Below are positions 11,814 through 61,701 of a stretch of DNA of 64,000 bases, piece after piece. Position numbers and translations under genes: made by a program. A model generated the notes under the pieces. That model had not been told where the DNA came from. It did not search any database and saw nothing but the letters and a program-made list of their open reading frames with translations. The stretch spans positions 44,840 to 108,839 of the forward strand of contig CAIZVZ010000009.1 in the NCBI GenBank assembly GCA_903936565.1, written 5' to 3'. The stretch is from an uncultured bacterium. Lineage in GTDB: Bacteria; Patescibacteriota; Minisyncoccia; Phycocordibacterales; CAIZLB01. Every line of letters begins with the position of its first letter. Positions within the stretch are counted from its first letter, which is position 1.

Positions 11814-11886
11814 GGCGTAGTGGCGAAGTGGTTAACGCGGCGATCTGCAAAATCGTTATACGCCGGTTCGATCCCGGCCTACGCCT
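11814..11886 (+). tRNA. tRNA-Cys (GCA)
   Basis: Acceptor ggcgtag/ctacgcc, anticodon loop cuGCAaa, T-loop ggttcgatcc, discriminator U. Confidence 0.85.
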
Positions 11887-11897
11887 CAAACACCCAT

Positions 11898-11980
11898 GCT
11901 CGGGTGGTGGAATGGTAGACACGCGACACTTAAAATGTCGTAGGCGAAAGCCTGTGCGGGTTCGAGTCCCGCCCTGAGCA
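11898..11980 (+). tRNA. tRNA-Leu (TAA)
   Basis: Anticodon stem cgaca/tgtcg with loop cuUAAaa. Long variable arm. T-loop ggttcgagtcc. Confidence 0.85.
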
Positions 11981-12883: not shown

Positions 12884-12956
12884 CCGCCCGTAGCTCAGTT
12901 GGTAGAGCAGTCGCCTCTTAAGTGAACGGTCGTAGGTTCGAATCCTACCGGGCGGA
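12884..12956 (+). tRNA. tRNA-Lys-like (CTT anticodon) with a poorly paired anticodon stem
   Basis: Good acceptor (ccgcccg/cgggcgg), D-arm (gctcagttggtagagc) and T-arm (gtaggttcgaatcctac). The anticodon loop cuCUUaa is canonical, but the flanking stem gtcgc/gtgaa forms only about 3 pairs. Confidence 0.5.
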
Positions 12957-13057
12957 CAAGAGTTTAAAACTCTATGAAGTAAGGCACAAAGCTCTAATTC
13001 ATGGGCTGTTAAATTCTTAAAATCAAGTGACCAAAAACTTGAAGAATCGTAAAACAT

Positions 13058-13142
13058 GGGCGAGTGGCGGAATTGGTATACGCGCTAGTCTTAGGAACTA
13101 GTTCCGTAAGGATTGAGGGTTCGAGTCCCTCCTCGCCCACCA
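13058..13142 (+). tRNA. tRNA-Leu (TAG)
   Basis: Acceptor gggcgag/ctcgccc, anticodon stem ctagt/actag with loop cuUAGga, long variable arm, CCA encoded. Confidence 0.85.
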
Positions 13143-42019: not shown

Positions 42020-42093
42020 TGGGCGATACAGGGCTCGAACCTGTGACCTCAGACACGTCAAGTCTGCGCTCTAGCCAACTGAGCTAATCGCCC
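42020..42093 (-). tRNA. tRNA-Val (GAC)
   Basis: Minus strand. Acceptor gggcgat/atcgccc, anticodon stem cagac/gtctg with loop uuGACgu, T-loop ggttcgagccc. Confidence 0.85.
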
Positions 42094-49692: not shown

Positions 49693-49779
49693 CGGAGAGA
49701 GAGGGATTTGAACCCTCGATGAGGTTTCCCCCATGCCGCTTTTCGAGAGCGGTGCCTTCAACCACTCAGCCATCTCTCC
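49693..49779 (-). tRNA. tRNA-Ser (CGA)
   Basis: Minus strand. Acceptor ggagaga/tctctcc, anticodon stem ccgct/agcgg with loop cuCGAaa, long variable arm, discriminator G. Confidence 0.85.
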
Positions 49780-49950
49780 AATGTTGAAACAACCATGAAA
49801 GCATACCATTAACACTGTATATGTGGCAATTTTTAACCAAATTTTAGCAAAATTCGGCCTGTTTTTTGATTTTTTTTGAAAATATGTTATATTCTTCATA
49901 TTGCTTTCATCTCTGATTATAGGCAATAAATTCAGGTATTTAGCCAGCAT

Positions 49951-50022
49951 GGCCCTATCGTCTATCGGTTAGGACGAAAGCTTTTCAAGCTTTAAAGCCG
50001 GGTTCGACTCCCGGTAGGGTCA
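49951..50022 (+). tRNA. tRNA-Glu (TTC)
   Basis: Acceptor ggcccta/tagggtc, Glu-type D-arm tcgtctatcggttaggacg, anticodon stem aaagc/gcttt with loop uuUUCaa. Confidence 0.85.
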
Positions 50023-52749: not shown

Positions 52750-53541
52750 TTATTTCTTCAACCACTCGAGCAATTCGTCACCAATCAATTGCTCGTTGAC
52801 TTCCTCGTCCGTCATGTGCACGAACTTTTCGATGTCCCGGATAACGACCAGTCCGACATTCGGGAACTCGTCGCCGAGCTGCTCGATGTAGCGGAATGTG
52901 CTTGGCTGGTTTGAACAGCCAATGAACAGGTAGTAAACCTGGTCACCACGCTCCGCGGATTCCCGCAGTAAGCGACGTGTCGGTTCCTTGTCGTCACCAT
53001 TGTTGTCGCCGTCGGTGACGTGGATGACGAGTGCGCGTTTCTTGGTTTGCGTAGTCGTAACGACCGGCTCAGCGACAGGTTTTGCCCCGCCACCAAATAG
53101 CCGGCCGAGCATTCCACCACCCTGCGGTTTAGCAACGGTTTGATTGCCGCAGCCATAGCCGAAGTGTGCCAAGTTTTTGCGCAGGACGTGTGCATAGTCT
53201 GTACCGCCATTGTAGCCGGGGACTTTGTTGATGATGCACCGGGCGATGTAACCGTCATGGTCATTCTCCGTGATTTCACCCACGTAGTAAGCATGACTGG
53301 CCCCATCACTGAACGTGAACACGTCCATCTTCTTGTCGGGATCAAAGACCATCCCCCAAGGCACGAGCCGAGTGAGAAGTCCTTGAGTGAGGCCGTCTTG
53401 ATGTTCATCCCGGAAGCTCCCACTGACGTCCAAGTTGAACGCCAATTCCATTGGAGGCGGAATGTTGATGCCACGCTTCTGGAGCGAGAGGACAAGGCCA
53501 GCTGCTGCTTTGGTGAGGTTGAGTTGTAATGGTTGTTTCAC
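52750..53541 (-). CDS. von Willebrand factor A domain protein (TerY-like)
   Basis: MIDAS-like LDVSGSF motif and downstream HVTDGDNNGD. Last gene of the ter operon. Confidence 0.65.
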   Translation of the reverse strand: MKQPLQLNLTKAAAGLVLSLQKRGINIPPPMELAFNLDVSGSFRDEHQDGLTQGLLTRLVPWGMVFDPDKKMDVFTFSDGASHAYYVGEITENDHDGYIARCIINKVPGYNGGTDYAHVLRKNLAHFGYGCGNQTVAKPQGGGMLGRLFGGGAKPVAEPVVTTTQTKKRALVIHVTDGDNNGDDKEPTRRLLRESAERGDQVYYLFIGCSNQPSTFRYIEQLGDEFPNVGLVVIRDIEKFVHMTDEEVNEQLIGDELLEWLKK

Positions 53542-53556
53542 TTGTCTATTTGCTTT

Positions 53557-54609
53557 CTATTGTCTTAGTTGTTGTTTTAGCGAGTTGAGTATCCGACTGG
53601 TTTCGCCAATTTCAGTCGGGTTTGTTTGTTTGCTACCATGACGCCCTTTTAAGTTGGCGACACTTTCCATCCAAACAGGCAATGTATTGAACACGACCTG
53701 CTGAATGATAGTTGTCATTCTCATGGGTTGCTCGATTTGGTTATCCCTCGAGAAGGAGCCTGAGCGGATTTGCCCAAGTGTAAGAGTGAGACTAGCAGCG
53801 CGGTCTTCCAACCGCTGTGCTAAATCCTCTCTTGAAATGTTTCTGAAGTAATCCGCAACGACCAAGGCCGCTGTGAGACCTGCTTCAACGTCGTCGCTGA
53901 GTTCAGCTAGAGTTCTTGAGTTTCCTTCCAAACTTTTGCTTAAATCAACGAGTGAAGATATACAATCGCGCATCAACAGAGTGAGCTGATCAATTTCCCT
54001 CAATGCTTCTTCCAGTGATGGAAGTGTGTCGATTTCTGGTGTGGCCGCCCGCATTATCTTCGCGAACAATCCAGCACCTTTTTCAAACACCTTTTCAAGT
54101 CTGATGCTGCTGAGAATTTCCATCATCCTATTTATGTACGAAGTACTTTTTTGAATGACTTCTGATCCGAGCAGCTTTAGAGTTTCCGTGACCAGGTTGT
54201 TGTGCTTTTCCTGAAGGTGTTGCCCCCAAGTAATCACGTCAACCTGATCAAGTTCGTCTTGTCTAGTGGCTTCGACAATTCTAACCACCGCATCCAAGAC
54301 TGGCTCTTTCAAATTTGGAAATTTTATTTTGAGACCCTCTCGCTTTACTGGAATGCGCTTTCGCACGGAACCAGGAATGGCGGAGGGGGTCTGAACGAGA
54401 TTGATCTCAGGTTTTTTGACGACCTGCTCTGCAGCTTTTGTAGCTTGCGCATCACCATATTCATCTCCACCAATAACCGTAGGCTTTGCTTGTGCCGAAG
54501 TGGCAGCGCCACCCATGGTTGTCGGAGTGATTTTTGTGATTGGAGGTACGGCGCACTGAGCACTGTCACCAACAACACCATTACCAATAACAGTCGGTTT
54601 CATTTTCAT
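53557..54609 (-). CDS. TelA-like protein, diverged paralog
   Basis: 350 aa helical protein. Its N-terminus MKMKPTVIGNG...KPTVIGG parallels MKPTTMGAPTVIG of the TelA at 55522. Preceded by the same leader repeat. Confidence 0.5.
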   Translation of the reverse strand: MKMKPTVIGNGVVGDSAQCAVPPITKITPTTMGGAATSAQAKPTVIGGDEYGDAQATKAAEQVVKKPEINLVQTPSAIPGSVRKRIPVKREGLKIKFPNLKEPVLDAVVRIVEATRQDELDQVDVITWGQHLQEKHNNLVTETLKLLGSEVIQKSTSYINRMMEILSSIRLEKVFEKGAGLFAKIMRAATPEIDTLPSLEEALREIDQLTLLMRDCISSLVDLSKSLEGNSRTLAELSDDVEAGLTAALVVADYFRNISREDLAQRLEDRAASLTLTLGQIRSGSFSRDNQIEQPMRMTTIIQQVVFNTLPVWMESVANLKGRHGSKQTNPTEIGETSRILNSLKQQLRQ

Positions 54610-54647
54610 TTCTTGTGGTTGAAGTTTTCAAAGTGCTATGTAGGAAT

Positions 54648-54790
54648 TTCCTCGGACCAAAATTACGTCCTTCTCCCCACTAGATTCCAAACACCGTGTT
54701 TTGAATCTAGATGAGGAGGGCAACATTAATGGAGTTGCCCGTGAACCTGTGGTGGTTCCCAGCAAGAGAAAAGTTCTTGCTACTTGTTTC
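54648..54790 (-). repeat. about 130-140 bp conserved structured leader, copy 1 (upstream of the TelA-like gene)
   Basis: About 95% identical to 56786-56915. Contains hairpins ctagattccaaacaccgtgttttgaatctag and gggcaac...gttgccc. Confidence 0.7.
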
Positions 54791-54813
54791 TAATTGATCA
54801 AAACGGGTGGGTG

Positions 54814-55419
54814 TTATGAGAAGTACCCCAACACAGCGTTGAAGTCACCCATAAACCCGGAGCCGACCGGAGCGTACTCCCAACCCTTGTCGCTGCGAAT
54901 CAAGCTGCCCATCTGGACCGCATTAAACGCAGCAAATTCGTTGGTAAGTTGATACTCGCCGAGCACCTTGCCCTCGTCGTCCTTTATGGTGATCGATGCG
55001 GATTTGACACCAGCAAAGGTTGCACCACCGTGGACTGTGACGAAGATTGGGATTTCGTTGACTTCGCTTCCAACCTTGTCACCAAAGATAGTGATCAGTT
55101 CATCGATGTCCGTCGTAACACCAGTGCGTGCGTCACCCGAGTGAGTGAGTGCACCGCAAGGTGTGGAGAACGACCTGTCTTGATTCGTGACCAGCATCCC
55201 GTTGGGATTGGTACTTTTTGCGTTGTAGGTGCTGAGCACCTGGGCAAAGTCATTGACCTTTGCCCCGTTACCACCGTTGGTGGCGAGCAGCGCATGTGCA
55301 TCCACGTCGTGCGTGCTGTCCCAGCGAAGCTCCACCGTGAAGCGGGCGCCTTTGTTGAGTGACAGTTGCAGTTTCTGGACGACATCACCTGGTTTTGCTA
55401 ATGGAAGTGCCAATGGCAT
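54814..55419 (-). CDS. terD: TerD-family stress protein
   Basis: LRWDSTHDVDAHALL, CGALTHSGDARTG and DDEGKVLGEYQLTNEFAAFNAVQMGSLIR..GWEYAPVGSGF match TerD/CABP signatures. Start placed at MPLALPLAK instead of the ORF-track start at 55491. Confidence 0.8.
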   Translation of the reverse strand: MPLALPLAKPGDVVQKLQLSLNKGARFTVELRWDSTHDVDAHALLATNGGNGAKVNDFAQVLSTYNAKSTNPNGMLVTNQDRSFSTPCGALTHSGDARTGVTTDIDELITIFGDKVGSEVNEIPIFVTVHGGATFAGVKSASITIKDDEGKVLGEYQLTNEFAAFNAVQMGSLIRSDKGWEYAPVGSGFMGDFNAVLGYFS

Positions 55420-55476
55420 ATTTTTGTTTTTTCTTTGTTTCTGATTGTTGTTGTTTGTCGTGCGGTTTGGTTTCTC

Positions 55477-55504
55477 CCCGCGGGCGCGCACGCGCCCGCG
55501 GGGA
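55477..55504. promoter_or_regulatory. perfect 28 bp GC palindrome (ccccgcgggcgcgcacgcgcccgcgggg) in the telA-terD intergenic region
   Basis: Arms of 13-14 bp, entirely G/C. No T-tract. Confidence 0.4.
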
Positions 55505-55521
55505 TTCCCTTGACCTTCTGC

Positions 55522-56718
55522 TTACGCTTTAGGTTTCGAGGAAAGTTGTGCGAGCTCGCCACGCGCTTCGGCAAACATGCCACGCGCAGTGTCAAACTTT
55601 TTGAGATTTTCTGTTCTTGCTGTGTCGACCAACGCTTGAACCTCACCAGTTAAGGCAATAAGTTCTTGGAGTTGGTTCGCCTGTTGAAGCCTGTTGTCCC
55701 CCGGAGCGTTTGCCGCCGTGGTAACAACCTCCCTCATGAGAGTTCCGCGGATTTGTCCCAGCTGCCGATCGAGATCAGCTTGCTTTGCAGCTAGCTGTTG
55801 CACACCCTTGACCTGCATTGCTCCATGAAGAGCGATCAAGGTTGTTTTGATGGAACTGAAACGTGTTGTCGCGGTTGTCGCGGTTTCTTGCAGAGTTTGA
55901 ACCCCAGCCGCCTCGACCTGTTGAATGACCAACTGATCTGCAGGCAACCTGGAGAAAACACCTTCAAGTGCCAAAGCCCGAGATTCCAAAAGTTGAAGTT
56001 TGTTCTCCGCTTCTTGTAGATCAGACTGTGCCAACACACTATTCGCGTCCAACCTCGCCCGTCCAACCTCGGCTCGCGCCGACTCGAGAAACTTGTGAGC
56101 CACTACAGCAACAACTGCGAAGTCATTGATATGTTGACGATAAGTCCCTTTAAGCTGATTGAAACGCTGAAGTTCACGGAGGAGTTCATCCAAAGCTTGC
56201 GCCAATTCCTTCTCGAGGTTTTTCATCACCCCCATTAGGTCTTGAGTACGGCCCGAGACTAATTCACATACAGCTTCGTGTGCAGTATGAGCTGCATCCG
56301 CAACCGCACGCTTACTCATAAAGCCAAGGACTCTCGCCTTGAACCCCAGTTTTCCCGATTGAATCTGCTTGAGCAGATCGGGAAGTTTTGCATCCTCAAC
56401 ACCGCTTTGCAGGCGGTCAAAGAGTGCAAAAAGTTTCGGGTTTCTAGCGCGTTCGATCCCTGACAAGAACCCATCAAGGGTCTCGGTAAGTGCAATTTCA
56501 GCACCGTGTCCAATCATCAGAATGTCCCCCGACGTGATGTCAGAAAACCTCAGACCACTGAGCATAGCTTCCGCAGTTGGAATTTGCTCCGGCAACAGCG
56601 CGATTTGTCCCGCATTACCCGCAAGGGCAACACTGAAGTCCGTCGCTTGTTGAGGAACCATTCCACTACCAGTTGATGCACCAATTACGGTCGGTGCCCC
56701 CATCGTTGTCGGTTTCAT
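55522..56718 (-). CDS. telA: TelA (toxic anion resistance / KlaA family) protein
   Basis: 398 aa, largely alpha-helical/coiled-coil, size and composition typical of TelA. Sits between TerC and TerD. Confidence 0.6.
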   Translation of the reverse strand: MKPTTMGAPTVIGASTGSGMVPQQATDFSVALAGNAGQIALLPEQIPTAEAMLSGLRFSDITSGDILMIGHGAEIALTETLDGFLSGIERARNPKLFALFDRLQSGVEDAKLPDLLKQIQSGKLGFKARVLGFMSKRAVADAAHTAHEAVCELVSGRTQDLMGVMKNLEKELAQALDELLRELQRFNQLKGTYRQHINDFAVVAVVAHKFLESARAEVGRARLDANSVLAQSDLQEAENKLQLLESRALALEGVFSRLPADQLVIQQVEAAGVQTLQETATTATTRFSSIKTTLIALHGAMQVKGVQQLAAKQADLDRQLGQIRGTLMREVVTTAANAPGDNRLQQANQLQELIALTGEVQALVDTARTENLKKFDTARGMFAEARGELAQLSSKPKA

Positions 56719-56785
56719 GTTTGTTCTCTCTGTATCTAGGGCTATGTACCCCGTTTTGATTTTAGTTGTGAATGAGCATAGAGAT

Positions 56786-56915
56786 TTCTTCGGACCAAAT
56801 TACGTCCTTCTCCCTACTAGATTCCAAACACCGTGTTTTAAATCTAGATGAGGAGGGCAACATTAATGGAGTTGCCCGTGAACCTGTGGTGGTTCCCAGC
56901 AAGAGAAAAGTTCTT
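56786..56915 (-). repeat. conserved structured leader, copy 2 (upstream of telA)
   Basis: Near-identical to 54648-54790. Confidence 0.7.
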
Positions 56916-56960
56916 GCTACTTGTCTGAATCCCTAACCCCCTTGGGTCGGCGCCCCGCTG

Positions 56961-57809
56961 TTAGCAGAACAAATTGGTCTTCACAACCTTGAATATAATT
57001 CTCCCACCGTTCAGACTCCACCTAATAGGAATCGTCACGACATAAAAAAGTTTATCCAAGATCACTACAAACTTTTGTCCTACAACAAGCACCGGCTTAA
57101 GCACCTTTCGTCCAATTCGCGACTCCGCATACCATAAGCTGCACAAAGTGATTACCACGATGCCAACAAACTTGTGTACGGAGTTGATGTGAAAATGAAT
57201 TTGAAAGTGTTCAAGCGACAGTTCAACCAACAGAATGAACCCAACAAAGCCAACTAGCATGAAAGCCGTCTTCTGCAAAATCGGAAATCTTTCAATCAGC
57301 TTGATGCAGTAACCTGCAACGAATCGCAGCGCCAGAATGCCAATGAAGACACCGAGGCATACGACCCACAAGCGCTTGTCCAGCGCGACGGCCGCCACTA
57401 CGTTATCCAGCGACAACGAGAGGTCCATGATTTCGATTTGTATTACTGTTGCGACCAGGCTTTTGTAAACCTTAGCCGAGCCGCTTTCATGGATCTCCTC
57501 CTCTGTTTTGCCAGAGAGATGTTCCACCATGAGATAGACTAGGTACAACGCACCAAATATCTTCAACCACGGATTCGAGGCGATAAACGCCACAAGCGCC
57601 AAAGCTAGACCACGAAACGCGTACGCCCCAATGATACCCAACCTCAACGCCTGCTTCTGTTGCTTCTTTGGCAGATCGCTTGCCATCGCGGCAATCGCCA
57701 TCGCGTTATCGACGGAGAGCAAGCCCTCAATCAAGATAAGCGATAATATTACGGGGATTGCTGTACTGAATTCACTCAGAGTGGGCAATTGTGAGAACAC
57801 GGCAGTCAT
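56961..57809 (-). CDS. terC: TerC-family integral membrane protein
   Basis: Two LSxDN repeats (LSVDNAMAIAAMA and LSLDNVVAAVAL). About 7 TM helices. Confidence 0.8.
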   Translation of the reverse strand: MTAVFSQLPTLSEFSTAIPVILSLILIEGLLSVDNAMAIAAMASDLPKKQQKQALRLGIIGAYAFRGLALALVAFIASNPWLKIFGALYLVYLMVEHLSGKTEEEIHESGSAKVYKSLVATVIQIEIMDLSLSLDNVVAAVALDKRLWVVCLGVFIGILALRFVAGYCIKLIERFPILQKTAFMLVGFVGFILLVELSLEHFQIHFHINSVHKFVGIVVITLCSLWYAESRIGRKVLKPVLVVGQKFVVILDKLFYVVTIPIRWSLNGGRIIFKVVKTNLFC

Positions 57810-58163
57810 TTCTATTTTCTTTATTTGTTGTTTCTGTTTTCTCTACAAATTACCAGTCTTCCGAGACTAGATTTGTTAGAGTATGAAATCTGCAGAATCA
57901 AATGCCGTGCACATTTGAAATACAGACTTCATGCTCTAACAAATCCTTAAGGTTTTAAATGAGCTCTATGAATTAACTTGACATACTGTATATTTCTGGT
58001 GCTAATGATAATCCGTTTCGCAAAGTTGTCAATATTTATTAGACGTTCAGAGGGCTATAAATCTATCTTTTTCTGGATGAATCTTTACAAGATACAATAA
58101 AGGCTTAAAATATACTAATCTGGAATAATTGCTTTTGTGATACGTCTAGTTTTAATTAGACGT

Positions 58164-59801
58164 TTAGTACTGATTGAAATTTCCTTCCTTTAATAAGCCT
58201 CTTTCTTCTAAAATACGAGTCAATATTTCGAAGTTACTTTTATACATTGGCATACCAGAATATCCGTCCCCCACTATTCCGTTATATAGATCGTAAAGTA
58301 CTAAATCGTTAAGTCTTCCTAGAAAACACGCAAGCTCAGACTCATCCTTATTAGATAATATGAATTTACATACACGAGCATTTAGGATAAAGTCGCCTGA
58401 CGATATAATTTCTAATAATTTATCTAATCCATCTACCCACCCATGATTCATCACACTTTCAATATCAGGATGCAAAGTAGCAAAATTATTTTCCATATCA
58501 GCAACATACAAGAAATAGGCTTCCTTGATGTTTTTATTTTTTAAGAATGAAACTAAATTGTTTTCATGTGACCCAGTAATTCGAGCATCATCAATCAATA
58601 CAATTATCTTGTTCTTAATAAAGCCCTCCATGATACTTAGATCATTTTTATTCATTAATGACTTTCTTTCTTCGTCCGAGAATGAACCATAATCACCCTG
58701 AAACATTTCCTTTTTTAGAATTGTAATATCAACGACAGAATTTTTACCCATCATAAATAGATATTGATTAATATAATTCTTGAATCCCTTAACGATACCG
58801 CTGGAACCTTTTACAATTGACTTGTAGGGAGAAGTTGTGATTACTAAATCTATATTGTCATTTGTGCTAAATATTTCAGGATTAGCTGAAATAAACTTCT
58901 TAGCTAATTGATGTCCATATTCTTTAGCAACCTTTCCATCTCCATACTTGAATTTGCTGTAGGAAATTAAATCAAATTCGTTTTTTACAACATCTCGATT
59001 CTCATCCTTAGGATTATCTTTTACAATTTCAACTATTTTATCTTCCTCAAAATCCAACTGACACAATGATAAATTGTCATAATGTAAAACTCTTTCATCA
59101 CTGCGCACAATGGACACCAACTCACCTATATCTTTTATGCCTGCAAATCTCTTTGCGTATTTATCAGATGGATCAAACAATAAAGACGAGATACCACTTT
59201 TCCATGCTCCTCTATAGTCGGCAATTAAACTATCCCCTACATGCAGAATTTCATAAGGAAAACATTTAGATTCTTTCACAAGCTGATCATAAATATAAAG
59301 ATGAGGTTTTGCACAACCAACTTCATTTGAGAAATAGGTGTAATCAACCAAATCAAGTACACCCAATTCTTTAAGCCCCCTTCTCATTACATCACCATGT
59401 AAAAAACCAGTATTACTAATCAATGCAATTTTTACACCAAGATTTTTAAGATCTTTCAAAATTTCAAACGTATCTGGATTAATTAGGATCGGTAAATTAT
59501 CCATAAACAGCAAGGATAATTCGCCCCTAAGCTTCTCAACGTGTTTGTCGTCTAAATCCTCGGAAGTGTTGTTTATTTTTTGATTAATCAAATTCAGTCT
59601 TGATTCGAAATCAAAATCAATTCCAACCGCTTCAGATAATCTATCCAACTCAACATCAACTTCATCTTTTACAGATTTCACCAAATCATAATCAGAGCAA
59701 TTAATCGCATCTCCAAATAGTACTGTTCGCTTTTTAACAAAATCAGAATTACTTTTTAACAATGTCTTCCAGACATCGAAACTAATTATTTTATATTTCA
59801 T
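58164..59801 (-). CDS. HAD-superfamily phosphatase fused to a PRTase-like domain protein (545 aa)
   Basis: HAD motif I SFDVWKTLL, motif II ISNTG, motif III K (KPHLYIY), motif IV VGDSLIADY. C-terminal half has a PRTase-type motif KIIVLIDDARITGSHE. Mid-region shares YSKFKYGD with the next gene. Confidence 0.55.
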   Translation of the reverse strand: MKYKIISFDVWKTLLKSNSDFVKKRTVLFGDAINCSDYDLVKSVKDEVDVELDRLSEAVGIDFDFESRLNLINQKINNTSEDLDDKHVEKLRGELSLLFMDNLPILINPDTFEILKDLKNLGVKIALISNTGFLHGDVMRRGLKELGVLDLVDYTYFSNEVGCAKPHLYIYDQLVKESKCFPYEILHVGDSLIADYRGAWKSGISSLLFDPSDKYAKRFAGIKDIGELVSIVRSDERVLHYDNLSLCQLDFEEDKIVEIVKDNPKDENRDVVKNEFDLISYSKFKYGDGKVAKEYGHQLAKKFISANPEIFSTNDNIDLVITTSPYKSIVKGSSGIVKGFKNYINQYLFMMGKNSVVDITILKKEMFQGDYGSFSDEERKSLMNKNDLSIMEGFIKNKIIVLIDDARITGSHENNLVSFLKNKNIKEAYFLYVADMENNFATLHPDIESVMNHGWVDGLDKLLEIISSGDFILNARVCKFILSNKDESELACFLGRLNDLVLYDLYNGIVGDGYSGMPMYKSNFEILTRILEERGLLKEGNFNQY

Positions 59802-59826
59802 GTTTTTTAATTTAATAAGGAGAATT

Positions 59827-60720
59827 TTATAAAGTGAATGAAGGAATACCGGGATTATCTGTTTTAATTAATTGATGATGTCTAATTCTAGATTCTTGTC
59901 TCACCACCTCAAAGCCCTTAGCATACTTTTCGACAGAACCATAACCATCATTAACGCTAGAAATGTAGAGTCCAAAAAGCATTTCATCACTTAGACGTTT
60001 ACAGAAATCTTCAAGCTCTTCTTGATTTTCCCAAGAAAGGATAAATCTACACAGACGAGAATTCAAAACAAATTCATCTGGTTTTTTCATCAACAGTTGC
60101 AGAGTGTCCAAATCATTTACCCATTTGTGATTAATTCGATTTTCAATATCGGGATCGTTTTTACCCGAACCCACATCAACTACATAGATAAATATAATCT
60201 CTTCAAGGCCTGCTTTTTCCATAAAATCTATAATTTTTTGCTCGTGGGCGCCTGTAATTCTAGCGTCTTCAACCAATATCAATCTTTTTCCTTTTAGCAA
60301 AAATGGATCAAAGGAAAGGGTGTCTCTCTTCATATTTTCTAGCCTTTCTCTGTGTGATAATTTACTGAAATCACAGACTGGAGCTGAGGACCTATGAATT
60401 TTTAAAAAGGTTAAGGGTTGATTCTTAGCAGATAACAAAAGCTCATTTAGCATGTAGTGGAAATACATAGCCAAAGAATTTGCTGATGGCGGTGTATACC
60501 AATAAGGTGAAGTAGACACAATGAACTCACTACTTTCTCCAGAAATTTTTTCTAAGGAAAATTTATTCAAAAACTCCGACATCATACTTTCAGCAAATTT
60601 CATTGCTGTAGGTTTGTGACCATACTTAAATTTACTGTACTCAGTGAAATCGAGTGTTGGTTTATTTTCTAAATTATTTTCGGCATCTATTGTGTACGCA
60701 GATATTCTGTTGATTTTCAT
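59827..60720 (-). CDS. PRTase-like domain protein, paralog of the C-terminal half of 58164..59801 (297 aa)
   Basis: LILVEDARITGAHE, YSKFKYGH, and a ...LNSRLCRFILS...NDGYG block aligned with the upstream gene. Confidence 0.5.
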   Translation of the reverse strand: MKINRISAYTIDAENNLENKPTLDFTEYSKFKYGHKPTAMKFAESMMSEFLNKFSLEKISGESSEFIVSTSPYWYTPPSANSLAMYFHYMLNELLLSAKNQPLTFLKIHRSSAPVCDFSKLSHRERLENMKRDTLSFDPFLLKGKRLILVEDARITGAHEQKIIDFMEKAGLEEIIFIYVVDVGSGKNDPDIENRINHKWVNDLDTLQLLMKKPDEFVLNSRLCRFILSWENQEELEDFCKRLSDEMLFGLYISSVNDGYGSVEKYAKGFEVVRQESRIRHHQLIKTDNPGIPSFTL

Positions 60721-60942: not shown

Positions 60943-61701
60943 TTACTTCTTTGCACCCCTTTCTGCTAACTTAAAAATACTCGTTAGGGTCTGCGCAAAT
61001 TCTGGATTTTTTATCAAAATTCCATAAATTGTATCCCCCAGCATGTGAATTCTGACCTCGTCTTCGAATATGTTTATGTCGCAAGAAAGTGGAAATTCAT
61101 CTTGATCTATCTTGAATGCAACCTGACCCTCTCTTGGCTTAATTTCTCCATCATCACATGTATAAATTACGCTATACAAATTATTCCCCTCTAAACGCAA
61201 GTTAATATATTTCTTTAGATTTTTTGATCTAAATAATTTGTATACCAACTCTAGTGGAAATACTCCGTAATCCATCTCTGTTCTAAATCTAGGGTTATTT
61301 GCCAACTCTTCCATAGAAGACTTAACAGCAGCATCCCCTTCGAAGAACTTTATAATAGGAGCCTGACCCTTTTTCCTAAGTGTTGCCTTAAGTTGAGGTA
61401 TTACAATATCTAAGCTTTTAATACTCTCCTCTGTTTTGAGTTTAAGCTCTTCCAAAATGAAACGGAGTCTTTCTGGATCTTCCGCTTGGTATGACAATCT
61501 TTTACCAACATTAACCTCACGCACTAATCCCTTTTCCTTCAATAAATCTAGGATTACATAAGCGGTAGATCTTTTTAGTTTTACTTCCTTGGCGATCTCA
61601 GCGGGTGTTGCAGATTCTGTAGACAAAAGAAACACATATACAACTATTTCCTTTTGTGAGATTCCTATATTTTTAAGATAGCTATAAAAGTTTAAATTCA
61701 T
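60943..61701 (-). CDS. TrmB-like winged-helix transcriptional regulator
   Basis: N-terminal GISQKEIVVYVFLLSTESATPAEIAKEVKLKRSTAYVILDLLKEKGLVRE matches TrmB-family HTH. Confidence 0.55.
   Translation of the reverse strand: MNLNFYSYLKNIGISQKEIVVYVFLLSTESATPAEIAKEVKLKRSTAYVILDLLKEKGLVREVNVGKRLSYQAEDPERLRFILEELKLKTEESIKSLDIVIPQLKATLRKKGQAPIIKFFEGDAAVKSSMEELANNPRFRTEMDYGVFPLELVYKLFRSKNLKKYINLRLEGNNLYSVIYTCDDGEIKPREGQVAFKIDQDEFPLSCDINIFEDEVRIHMLGDTIYGILIKNPEFAQTLTSIFKLAERGAKK

Follow-up and report, generated by a model that had tools for sequence, protein, structure and literature searches.

A covarying leader RNA present in two copies upstream of the TelA-like genes of a ter operon in the Patescibacteriota

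Gene clusters of the Ter/TelA type are widespread, and the resistance to tellurite is generally seen as incidental to their natural role. For the TerC family of genes, regulation by RNA is known from the yybP-ykoY (Mn2+) riboswitch, RF00080, which adopts a four-helix, two-stack fold. Leaders of the same class can recur in one locus, as is the case for tandem or multiple riboswitches, for T-boxes, and for the two homologous put antitermination RNAs of phage HK022. Here we describe a structured leader that occurs twice in a ter operon of an uncultured bacterium of the Patescibacteriota (assembly GCA_903936565.1, contig CAIZVZ010000009.1; the whole stretch of 64,000 nucleotides that was analyzed is called the window). 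Copy A lies in the spacer between the genes for TerD and ORF350 and copy B in the spacer between the genes for TerC and ORF398, so that each copy precedes one of the two TelA-like genes of the operon.

As a probable cis-acting RNA that is linked to ter-type membrane/stress genes, the leader is similar to the yybP-ykoY riboswitch, but that family has no covariance model (CM) match here even at E<=10, and the leader precedes telA-like genes and not terC and is made of hairpins in series. With the put RNAs and other tandem leaders it shares the presence of two homologous RNA elements that could place separate transcription or translation units under common control. In this operon, however, the copies are 2.1 kb apart and each has its own gene, and the search for terminators found none, so that nothing points to antitermination. 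The processing or stabilizer hairpins of polycistronic mRNAs, such as RNase III/E sites, are also located in operon spacers and also have long stems followed by single-stranded A/U-rich sequence; the leader is far more elaborate than these, is conserved in sequence, and appears to be kept as a primary 5' untranslated region (UTR) in two relatives, L020 and L041. In protein-binding autoregulatory mRNA leaders, such as the rpsF leader which is bound by S6:S18 (PMC3895269), hairpins with conserved loops and stem bases are likewise found upstream of the ribosome loading region in a modular arrangement from which parts can be lost, whereas the proteins encoded downstream of the present leader are not known RNA binders. 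Finally, the orphan structured leader motifs of the Breaker/Weinberg type (PMC1950547, PMC6429828, PMC8632094) are, like this one, covarying multi-helix RNAs that lie 5' of one gene class in the same orientation and have a narrow phylogenetic range. Unlike them, the leader occurs twice in one operon before two different genes, its copies are homogenized by gene conversion, and its host belongs to the Patescibacteria and lacks Shine-Dalgarno (SD) sites.

Judged by its sequence and predicted fold, the leader belongs in kind with these orphan motifs and appears to match no described family. The initial annotation had considered it to be a cis-regulatory RNA such as a leader, attenuator or riboswitch-like sensor and had proposed an Rfam search as a check. 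When the whole window was searched against Rfam 15 (4227 families) at the gathering threshold only eight tRNAs were returned, and in the region 54500-57100 at E<=10 the best match was LAGLIDADG-2 with 25 bits against a cut-off of 94.9; thus no family matches the leader. Full-text literature searches found no RNA motif associated with ter or telA and no comparable motif from Patescibacteria. The unusual trait of the leader is that its two copies in one operon are under ongoing concerted evolution. It is among the few candidate regulatory RNAs defined in Patescibacteria, and its position before both TelA-like genes makes it a concrete handle on these systems, since whatever binds to it, be it a ligand, a protein or a nuclease, would report on the deployment of Ter.

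Structure of the leader and its conservation in relatives

Repeat search, alignment, folding and CM search place copy A at 54641..54787 and copy B at 56779..56924, both on the minus strand, as all features of the operon are; each copy is a converted repeat unit that carries the helices P1 to P6. The coordinates proposed initially (54648-54790 and 56786-56915) were correct to within ~10 nt. Pairwise alignment of A and B showed 5 substitutions and one 1-nt indel in ~147 nt (~96% identity), and the identity ends abruptly at both edges of the repeat. In the repeat search, 54660-54787 matched 56797-56924 over 128 nt with 98% identity, and a second segment of 21 nt with 86% identity (54641-54661 and 56779-56799) is joined to it across the 1-nt indel. 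The P4 hairpin and the GGGCAAC...GTTGCCC stem were each found at only the two leader sites in the window and in none of 100 shuffles, and the CM described below, R1, also found only two copies in the window, A with 110 bits and B with 107 bits.

Each copy is predicted to fold into several hairpins in a row; the z-scores are -4.3 for one copy and -3.7 for the other, and none of 200 shuffles folded as well. The two stems that had been noticed at the outset are present in both copies as P3 (GGGCAAC/GUUGCCC) and P4 (CUAGAUUC.../...GAAUCUAG), and the fold holds further helices, namely, P1, P2, and P5 inside P6. In copy A, P1 (GCAAGA/UCUUGC, 54762..54780) is a hairpin whose counterpart in every full-length homolog has a different stem sequence, and it is followed by the conserved linker CUGG and by P2 (GAACC/GGUUC, 54743..54758). 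P3 (54718..54740) has the conserved loop UCCAUUAAU and is separated from P4 by a pyrimidine-rich joiner, J3/4 (UCCUCAU, 54711..54717), which could pair with UGGGGA and would then lengthen P4 and exclude P6. P4 (54680..54710) is a long hairpin that hardly varies at its CUAG/CUAG base but does so in its apical part, and P6 (UGGGGA/UUCCUA, 54641..54679) encloses an optional P5 (54654-54670). From there an unstructured, C/A-rich tail (54604..54640) extends to the start codon; it carries the box GCACUUUGAAAAC at 54624-54636, and it is A-specific and orthologously conserved. The parts of copy B are P1 at 56899..56917, P2 at 56880..56895, P3 at 56855..56877, P4 at 56817..56847, in which a C-to-U change relative to A gives a U·G wobble, and P6 (UAGGGA/UCUCUA, 56779..56816) around P5 (56792-56807), the 3' strand of P6 being still of the B type. 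In its tail (56719..56778) the box GCUCAUUCACAAC is found at 56765-56777 and a small hairpin, P7, at 56738-56752, and the stretch up to the AUG is A-rich. The helices of A and B differ at four places, and pairing is retained at all four. The 30-60 nt that directly precede the AUG are rich in C and A, and the folds predicted for the two copies leave them unpaired.

Contigs from ENA, JGI, Logan and NCBI were found to encode homologs of ORF398 with 56-92% identity and of ORF350 with 36-83% identity. The gene order TerC-TelA-TerD-ORF~340-vWA recurs in these relatives and a version of the leader is recognizable in both spacers. R1 was built on 23 hand-checked instances from 13 sources, and it recovers exactly those 23 with 44-113 bits while antisense matches reach at most 27 bits. 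In the alignment A7, 92.4% of the 621 cells are standard pairs, as against 31-46% when the partners are slid by 1-3 columns, 46% being the value for a slide of one column, and 22 of the 27 pairs have changed on both sides; these values were reached by none of 500 shuffles, and RNAalifold run on A7 predicted the same 27 pairs. Changes on both sides were found in all seven pairs of P3, in 10 of the 14 pairs of P4, and in five of the six pairs of P6. Thus in P3 GGGCAAC/GUUGCCC is replaced by GGGCGAA/UUCGCCC and GGGCAUA/UAUGCCU, at the base of P4 CUAG/CUAG is replaced by CCAG/CUGG and CUAA/UUAG, and in P6 UAGGGA/UCUCUA is replaced by UAGGGU/ACCCUA, UAGAGAA/UUCUCUA and CAGA/UCUG. P1 and P2, which are linked by a conserved YYGR(K)GA, fold in every full-length copy although their stem sequences are unrelated, a statement that is based on per-sequence folds and not on pair counts because the MAFFT alignment A8 shifts register between sequences. 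Conserved in both sequence and pairing are the P3 loop (UYCRUYAAU), the P4 base and P6, and the tail box GCWCWUUNAMAAC is also conserved. The leader is therefore a functional-looking, structured, sense-strand RNA directly 5' of each TelA-like gene. The possibility raised at the start, that homologous ter loci have no conserved structure, does not hold, since P3, P4 and P6 covary in the 23 instances and covarying helices are kept in a dozen related loci.

That the folded molecule is RNA, and only of the gene-sense strand, follows from the alignment cells, of which 58 are G·U or U·G and 15 are A·C or C·A. This bears on the question whether the repeat acts as DNA, that is, as a duplicated operator or internal promoter in which, for example, P4 would be the site of a TrmB-family regulator. 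Read as DNA, P4 is indeed an almost perfect palindrome whose two ends are both an invariant CTAG, and a TrmB gene is syntenic in most loci. However, wobble pairing is kept on one strand only, and the distance between the CUAG bases of P4 varies from 19 to 44 nt with whole sub-hairpins inserted, which together exclude a palindromic DNA operator. In addition, P3, P6, P1 and P2 covary too, and no promoter-like site was found on the minus strand within either leader. The sole strong sigma-70-like promoter of the block in promoter prediction (TTGACA-16-TATCAT, 58005..58032, minus strand) lies upstream of TerC, and a different repeated box, AACGTCTAAT, which flanks this real promoter, is the better operator candidate. 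We therefore regard a role at the DNA level as very improbable. It follows also from the position of this promoter that in this genome both leaders would be internal to the operon mRNA.

The repeat is not coding either. A sense frame is open across it, but it has no ATG or GTG start and only an in-frame TTG, the 1-nt indel shifts the frame between A and B, and the length changes in the homologs are not multiples of 3. Antisense open reading frames (ORFs) differ between the copies and are not conserved. Short AUG-ORFs are present in the B tails of some genomes only, with unconserved frames, so no conserved leader-peptide ORF was found.

Both syntenic sites are occupied in L003, L004, L007, L009, L020, L038, L039, L041 and L035. 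In L005 and L006 only the TelA-side copy was found, and these contigs stop short of the second site. In L042, which also has only the TelA-side copy, ORF361 directly adjoins TerD. The GC-rich locus L043 (TelA-TerD-ORF334-vWA, with no TerC gene called upstream) has no leader copy. In L020 and L041 there is no TerC before TelA, and copy B, of which only P4, P6 and the tail are kept, comes directly after a promoter-like AT-rich region; P4, P6 and the tail would thus form a primary 5' UTR there and can be taken as the minimal core. Wherever it is found, the leader lies 30-100 nt 5' of a gene whose product begins with MKPTxIG or a near variant. In the remainder of the 332 kb of loci searched with the CM no further copy scored above chance. 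Among public genome contigs the loose pattern TYAATSYTGYYCTYCNNNTCTAG gave 22 matches, of which only L020 is true, the others having at most 14 bits by CM. A two-anchor pattern found only two public metagenome contigs, which are identical to L003 and L004, and none of 67 pattern matches in public viral contigs is true, the best having 21.5 bits (574 kb of loci, CM). On the strength of these searches, the leader appears to be rare and clade-restricted.

Why the two copies are alike

The initial annotation had taken the two copies as a segmental duplication that preserved a functional cis-regulatory RNA, with a leader better conserved than the coding regions. If this were the case, then the similarity of A and B would reflect purifying selection, and if the repeat were without function it could be a recent segmental duplication, an assembly artefact or a mobile element of the MITE type. 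Direct repeats that are 96% identical and 2.1 kb apart, in a block of atypical composition (~50% vs ~35% GC), would be in line with the latter. The comparative data refute it, and we give it practically no credence: the same two sites are filled in independently assembled contigs from ENA, JGI, Logan and NCBI, A and B have diverged in deeper relatives while their helices covary, and each locus has only two copies. Nor does the leader resemble a MITE or a dispersed repeat, since the 64 kb hold just two copies, the syntenic sites that it occupies are always the same, and neither terminal inverted repeats nor target duplications are evident at the aligned ends of A and B.

The comparison of copies within and between genomes gives a different explanation. 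For the core (J3/4-P4-P6), A and B of the same genome are 88% identical in the window, 97% in L003, 78% in L020, 88% in L004 and 91% in L009, whereas orthologous core copies between these five are 50-87% alike. In L007, L038, L039, L041 and L035 the similarity of A to B is no more than 31-54%, and the A copies and the B copies fall into separate lineages. In the window subclade, A is thus closer to B than to its ortholog, except among the nearest relatives (the window pair is 88% alike, as against 82-87% to L003). The 20-nt tails behave in the opposite way, since in every genome the A tail groups with other A tails and the B tail with other B tails; thus the tail of window A is 100% identical to that of L003 A and 50% identical to that of window B. 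Since A and B diverged in the deeper relatives, are alike in the window subclade and have orthologous tails, their near-identity comes from gene conversion, and we conclude from these sequences that A and B are two old paralogous leaders under concerted evolution. In the B copies of the window subclade the 5' strand of P6 is of the A type and the 3' strand of the B type, which gives G·U pairs; the conversion tract thus appears to end inside P6, with pairing there still kept. In the window lineage, copy A has overwritten the core of copy B and conversion has kept the two similar, the tails remaining gene-specific.

When genomes are compared, leader and coding sequences are found to diverge at about the same rate (88-92% vs 83-94% identity to L003 and 56-58% vs 58-65% to L009). 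The claim that it is the better conserved of the two is therefore true between A and B and not between genomes, and the 96% identity is not a sign of extraordinary purifying selection. That selection has nevertheless acted can be seen from the four helix differences between A and B, none of which disrupts pairing. Of the original interpretation, the part that stands is a structured sense-strand RNA at the leader position; the part that does not is that conservation after duplication accounts for the identity of the copies. If both copies are regulatory, the locus shows cleanly, in a natural setting, how two regulatory RNAs evolve in concert.

Possible modes of action

The comparisons above show the RNA itself, its strand, helices, distribution and concerted evolution; that it has a regulatory role, and in what manner this might be exerted, we infer. 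The explanation that we favor, with reasonable though not strong confidence, is that it is a new clade-restricted cis-acting leader RNA that sets the expression of both TelA-like cistrons, probably via one shared trans factor. The minus-strand mRNA of the ter operon would include the leader just before each TelA-like cistron, and, as there are no SD sites, ribosomes would load on the unstructured tail. The folded core, namely, the P4 base, P6, the P3 loop and the tail box, would be the docking site for a single trans-acting factor that both copies share and that is a protein more probably than a small molecule. Once bound, the factor would alter the loading of ribosomes on the tail, the rate at which the downstream cistron decays, or both, and as a result the two TelA-like proteins would be set together and separately from TerC, TerD and the vWA protein. 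Docking of a trans factor is favored because the hairpins are in series, P1-P3 are dispensable, and the single-stranded box is shared.

This box deserves mention in its own right. GCWCWUUNAMAAC is matched exactly at 3 places in the window, each of them in a ter leader and in the sense orientation, and the third, an independent match, is located in the TerC 5' UTR (57952-57964, minus strand); ~0.06 matches would be expected in the whole window as estimated from the degeneracy of the pattern. A relaxed form of the box is also found ~150 nt upstream of TerC in L003 and L006, and the control loci gave 5 matches in 1.25 Mb of strand sequence. The tail box may be a common binding site for a protein or an RNase.

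Several observations weigh against regulation by a docked factor. No intrinsic terminator was found on the minus strand in either leader, and no conserved helix joins the unpaired core columns to the initial 20 nt of the tail. Single-sequence folds of both window copies leave the start region unpaired, and no helix that would sequester the start is conserved. The sole alternative pairing, that of J3/4 with the 5' strand of P6, is 74.5% paired, as against 50-62% when slid, and it is absent from several B copies. Hairpins in series between cistrons can be passive processing or stability elements, and other spacers of the operon also hold conserved hairpins. Furthermore, the sample is small and phylogenetically narrow (~12 genomes, 23 instances), and the alignment used for counting pairs was itself fitted to the model. 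As for transcription attenuation, the leaders have no terminator hairpin with a U-tract and no conserved leader ORF.

Other pairings were considered and rejected. A scan of A7 for at least 4 consecutive pairs involving the P3 loop, J3/4 and the first 20 nt of the tail found no pseudoknot or long-range pairing. Two pairings seen by eye, that between the tail and the 5' arm of P4 and that between the 3' arm of P2 and AUGAAACC, are not retained in other genomes. CCUCC...GGGAG could be read as an SD/anti-SD pair, but SD sites are not used in this genome (1 of 46 long ORFs).

The passive role just mentioned can be stated more fully: the leader would be an intercistronic module with sites for RNase entry or blocking, at which the polycistronic ter mRNA is cut so that both TelA-like cistrons are left with structured, protected 5' ends, and it would fix stoichiometry without sensing anything. 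Both copies are operon-internal here, with the sole strong promoter at 58005-58032; every operon spacer has a conserved hairpin, including the TelA-TerD spacer and the TerC 5' UTR; scans for terminators and conserved helices found no expression platform; and the stems are followed by a single-stranded A/U-rich box. Stems followed by such a box are the typical layout of an endonuclease site. On the other hand, conservation extends beyond pairing to the sequence itself in P6, in the loop of P3, in the linker of P1 and P2 and at the CUAG base of P4, the modular build of six helices exceeds what stabilizer hairpins usually need, and the core is retained even where it appears to be the primary 5' UTR (L020 and L041). 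Passive processing is a possible, though in our estimate unlikely, explanation.

It could also be argued that the leader is a metabolite or ion riboswitch, or a comparable sensor, in which P1-P6 form an aptamer for a signal of the Ter pathway and gate the translation of both TelA-like genes, the leader having been duplicated so that one signal switches both. The ligand would be, for example, a metal ion or a nucleoside-like product of the neighboring PRTase/HAD enzymes and, if this were true, it would reveal what Ter/TelA systems respond to. The leader is, as a riboswitch would be, a conserved, covarying structured domain of the sense strand 5' of a gene. It is a large multi-helix RNA with conserved unpaired nucleotides, and the genes that it precedes are always of one class; the operon is adjoined by a pair of PRTase_3 genes, of which one is HAD-fused, and the P4 extension and P6 could be mutually exclusive. 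However, the hairpins are in series without a multi-helix junction and no conserved pseudoknot was found, and P1-P3 are lost while the core stays in copy B of L020 and L041 (L020_B, L041_B), which argues against one compact aptamer. Moreover, there is neither a terminator nor sequestration of the start site, PRTase genes are not within ~5 kb in L038, L039, L041 and L042, and no Rfam class matches. A riboswitch is thus a doubtful proposition, and docking of a shared trans factor remains the explanation that we prefer.

The leader is set in a genome that makes practically no use of SD sites. An SD-like motif is present in 1 of 46 long ORFs of the window, and a TATAAT-like box is often found 5-12 nt ahead of the start codon. 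The rarity of SD motifs together with TATAAT near the ATG indicates that translation does not rely on SD pairing and that many mRNAs look leaderless, which implies, as far as can be read from the DNA, that leaderless or near-leaderless mRNAs are widespread in this Patescibacteria genome. A structured leader of ~150-200 nt would be exceptional in such a setting, and it may show how internal cistrons are translated or controlled in such organisms.

The ter operon and its surroundings

The first gene of the operon is that for TerC (56961..57809, minus strand, identified by domain search like TerD and the vWA protein), and it is followed on the same strand by ORF398 (55522..56718), TerD (54814..55419), ORF350 (53557..54609, with the start probably at 54603, giving MKPTVIG) and a vWA-TerF-like gene (52750..53541), which is the last gene of the block. 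ORF398, which is served by copy B and has the N-terminus MKPTTMGAPTVIG, is by ORF list, homologs and profile search a distant TelA-family protein; ORF350, which is served by copy A, is a helical-bundle protein from a narrow family. The N-termini of the two proteins had been described as alike and this is so, the MKPT..G/PTVIG motif being the only part that BLASTP can align; outside of it ORF350 and ORF398 are not alignable. The further claim that both are TelA paralogs is borne out in part. Neither protein of the window itself matches Pfam TelA (PF05816). In the ORF398 family 4 of 21 members match it (best E 9e-7), and homologs with 48% identity carry PF05816, so this family is a distant TelA relative. 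In the ORF350 family, which has only 11 clusters, 1 of 11 members matches TelA, and weakly (E 0.048), and hhalign of the two families gave a probability of 31%. That ORF350 and ORF398 are two TelA paralogs is therefore plausible from these comparisons.

The AlphaFold model of ORF350 (mean pLDDT 75, pTM 0.60) has residues 1-76 disordered, followed by a long helical bundle, and a fold search against the PDB gave weak matches only, of the ClyA/AhlC/Hbl type. Within the predicted disordered 76 residues, KPTVIG/TPTTMG is repeated near the N-terminus (54450-54609). The MKPTxIG-type start is common to the families of ORF350 and ORF398 (56670-56718), homologs included, and this short linear motif is perhaps a docking motif for a common partner.

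The five ter genes (52750-57809) have 45-53% GC and the block ~50%, as against ~31-40% for the genome and 31-33% for the adjacent PRTase_3/HAD genes. The closest homologs of ORF398 outside the clade, with ~48% identity, are from Proteobacteria (Devosia, Burkholderiales). The contrast in GC together with these homologs suggests that the clade acquired the ter block horizontally and has kept it since. The host itself is a Patescibacteria (CPR) bacterium, as the ClpB encoded in the window has 77% identity to a protein named "Candidatus Parcubacteria" and 71-75% identity to proteins named Paceibacterota or Minisyncoccia.

The stretch 58164-60720, directly upstream of the ter promoter, holds on the minus strand a pair of ComF-like PRTase_3 genes, of which one is fused to a HAD phosphatase domain, and beyond them is a TrmB gene at 60943-61701. 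These neighbors fit the gene set for a "nucleoside-like metabolite" that has been proposed to be associated with Ter. In the minus-strand reading, the box AACGTCTAAT is present in two copies, at 58035-58050 and 58152-58167, one of which abuts the -35 hexamer of the TerC promoter. The same arrangement of box and promoter is found before leader B in L020, and GTCTAAT repeats are present in the TrmB-ter spacers of L041 and L042. It is likely that this box is the operator of the syntenic TrmB-family regulator, for which it is our candidate.

Two other hairpins are present in the operon. In the TerC 5' UTR (57807-58000, minus strand; ~190 nt after the predicted promoter) there is a hairpin with 23-bp arms (57870-57892/57923-57945, z -5.0). 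L042 keeps the same stem, GAUUUGUU...AACAAAUC, with a compensatory change from UUAGAG/CUCUAA to UUGGGG/CUCCAA. This hairpin has no match in Rfam and is not recognizable as a yybP-ykoY riboswitch, and it may be a third leader RNA of the ter operon. In the TelA-TerD spacer, positions 55475-55504 form a perfect 14-bp GC hairpin without a U-tract. Relatives have a hairpin with other stem sequences at this position, and a GYGCRCA box is present both in its loop and ~15 nt downstream; by this comparison the spacer hairpin appears to be a separate conserved element before TerD.

Elsewhere in the window, the eight tRNA genes are located at 1018-1100, 11814-11980 (three within 170 nt), 12884-13139, 42020-42093 and 49693-50022.

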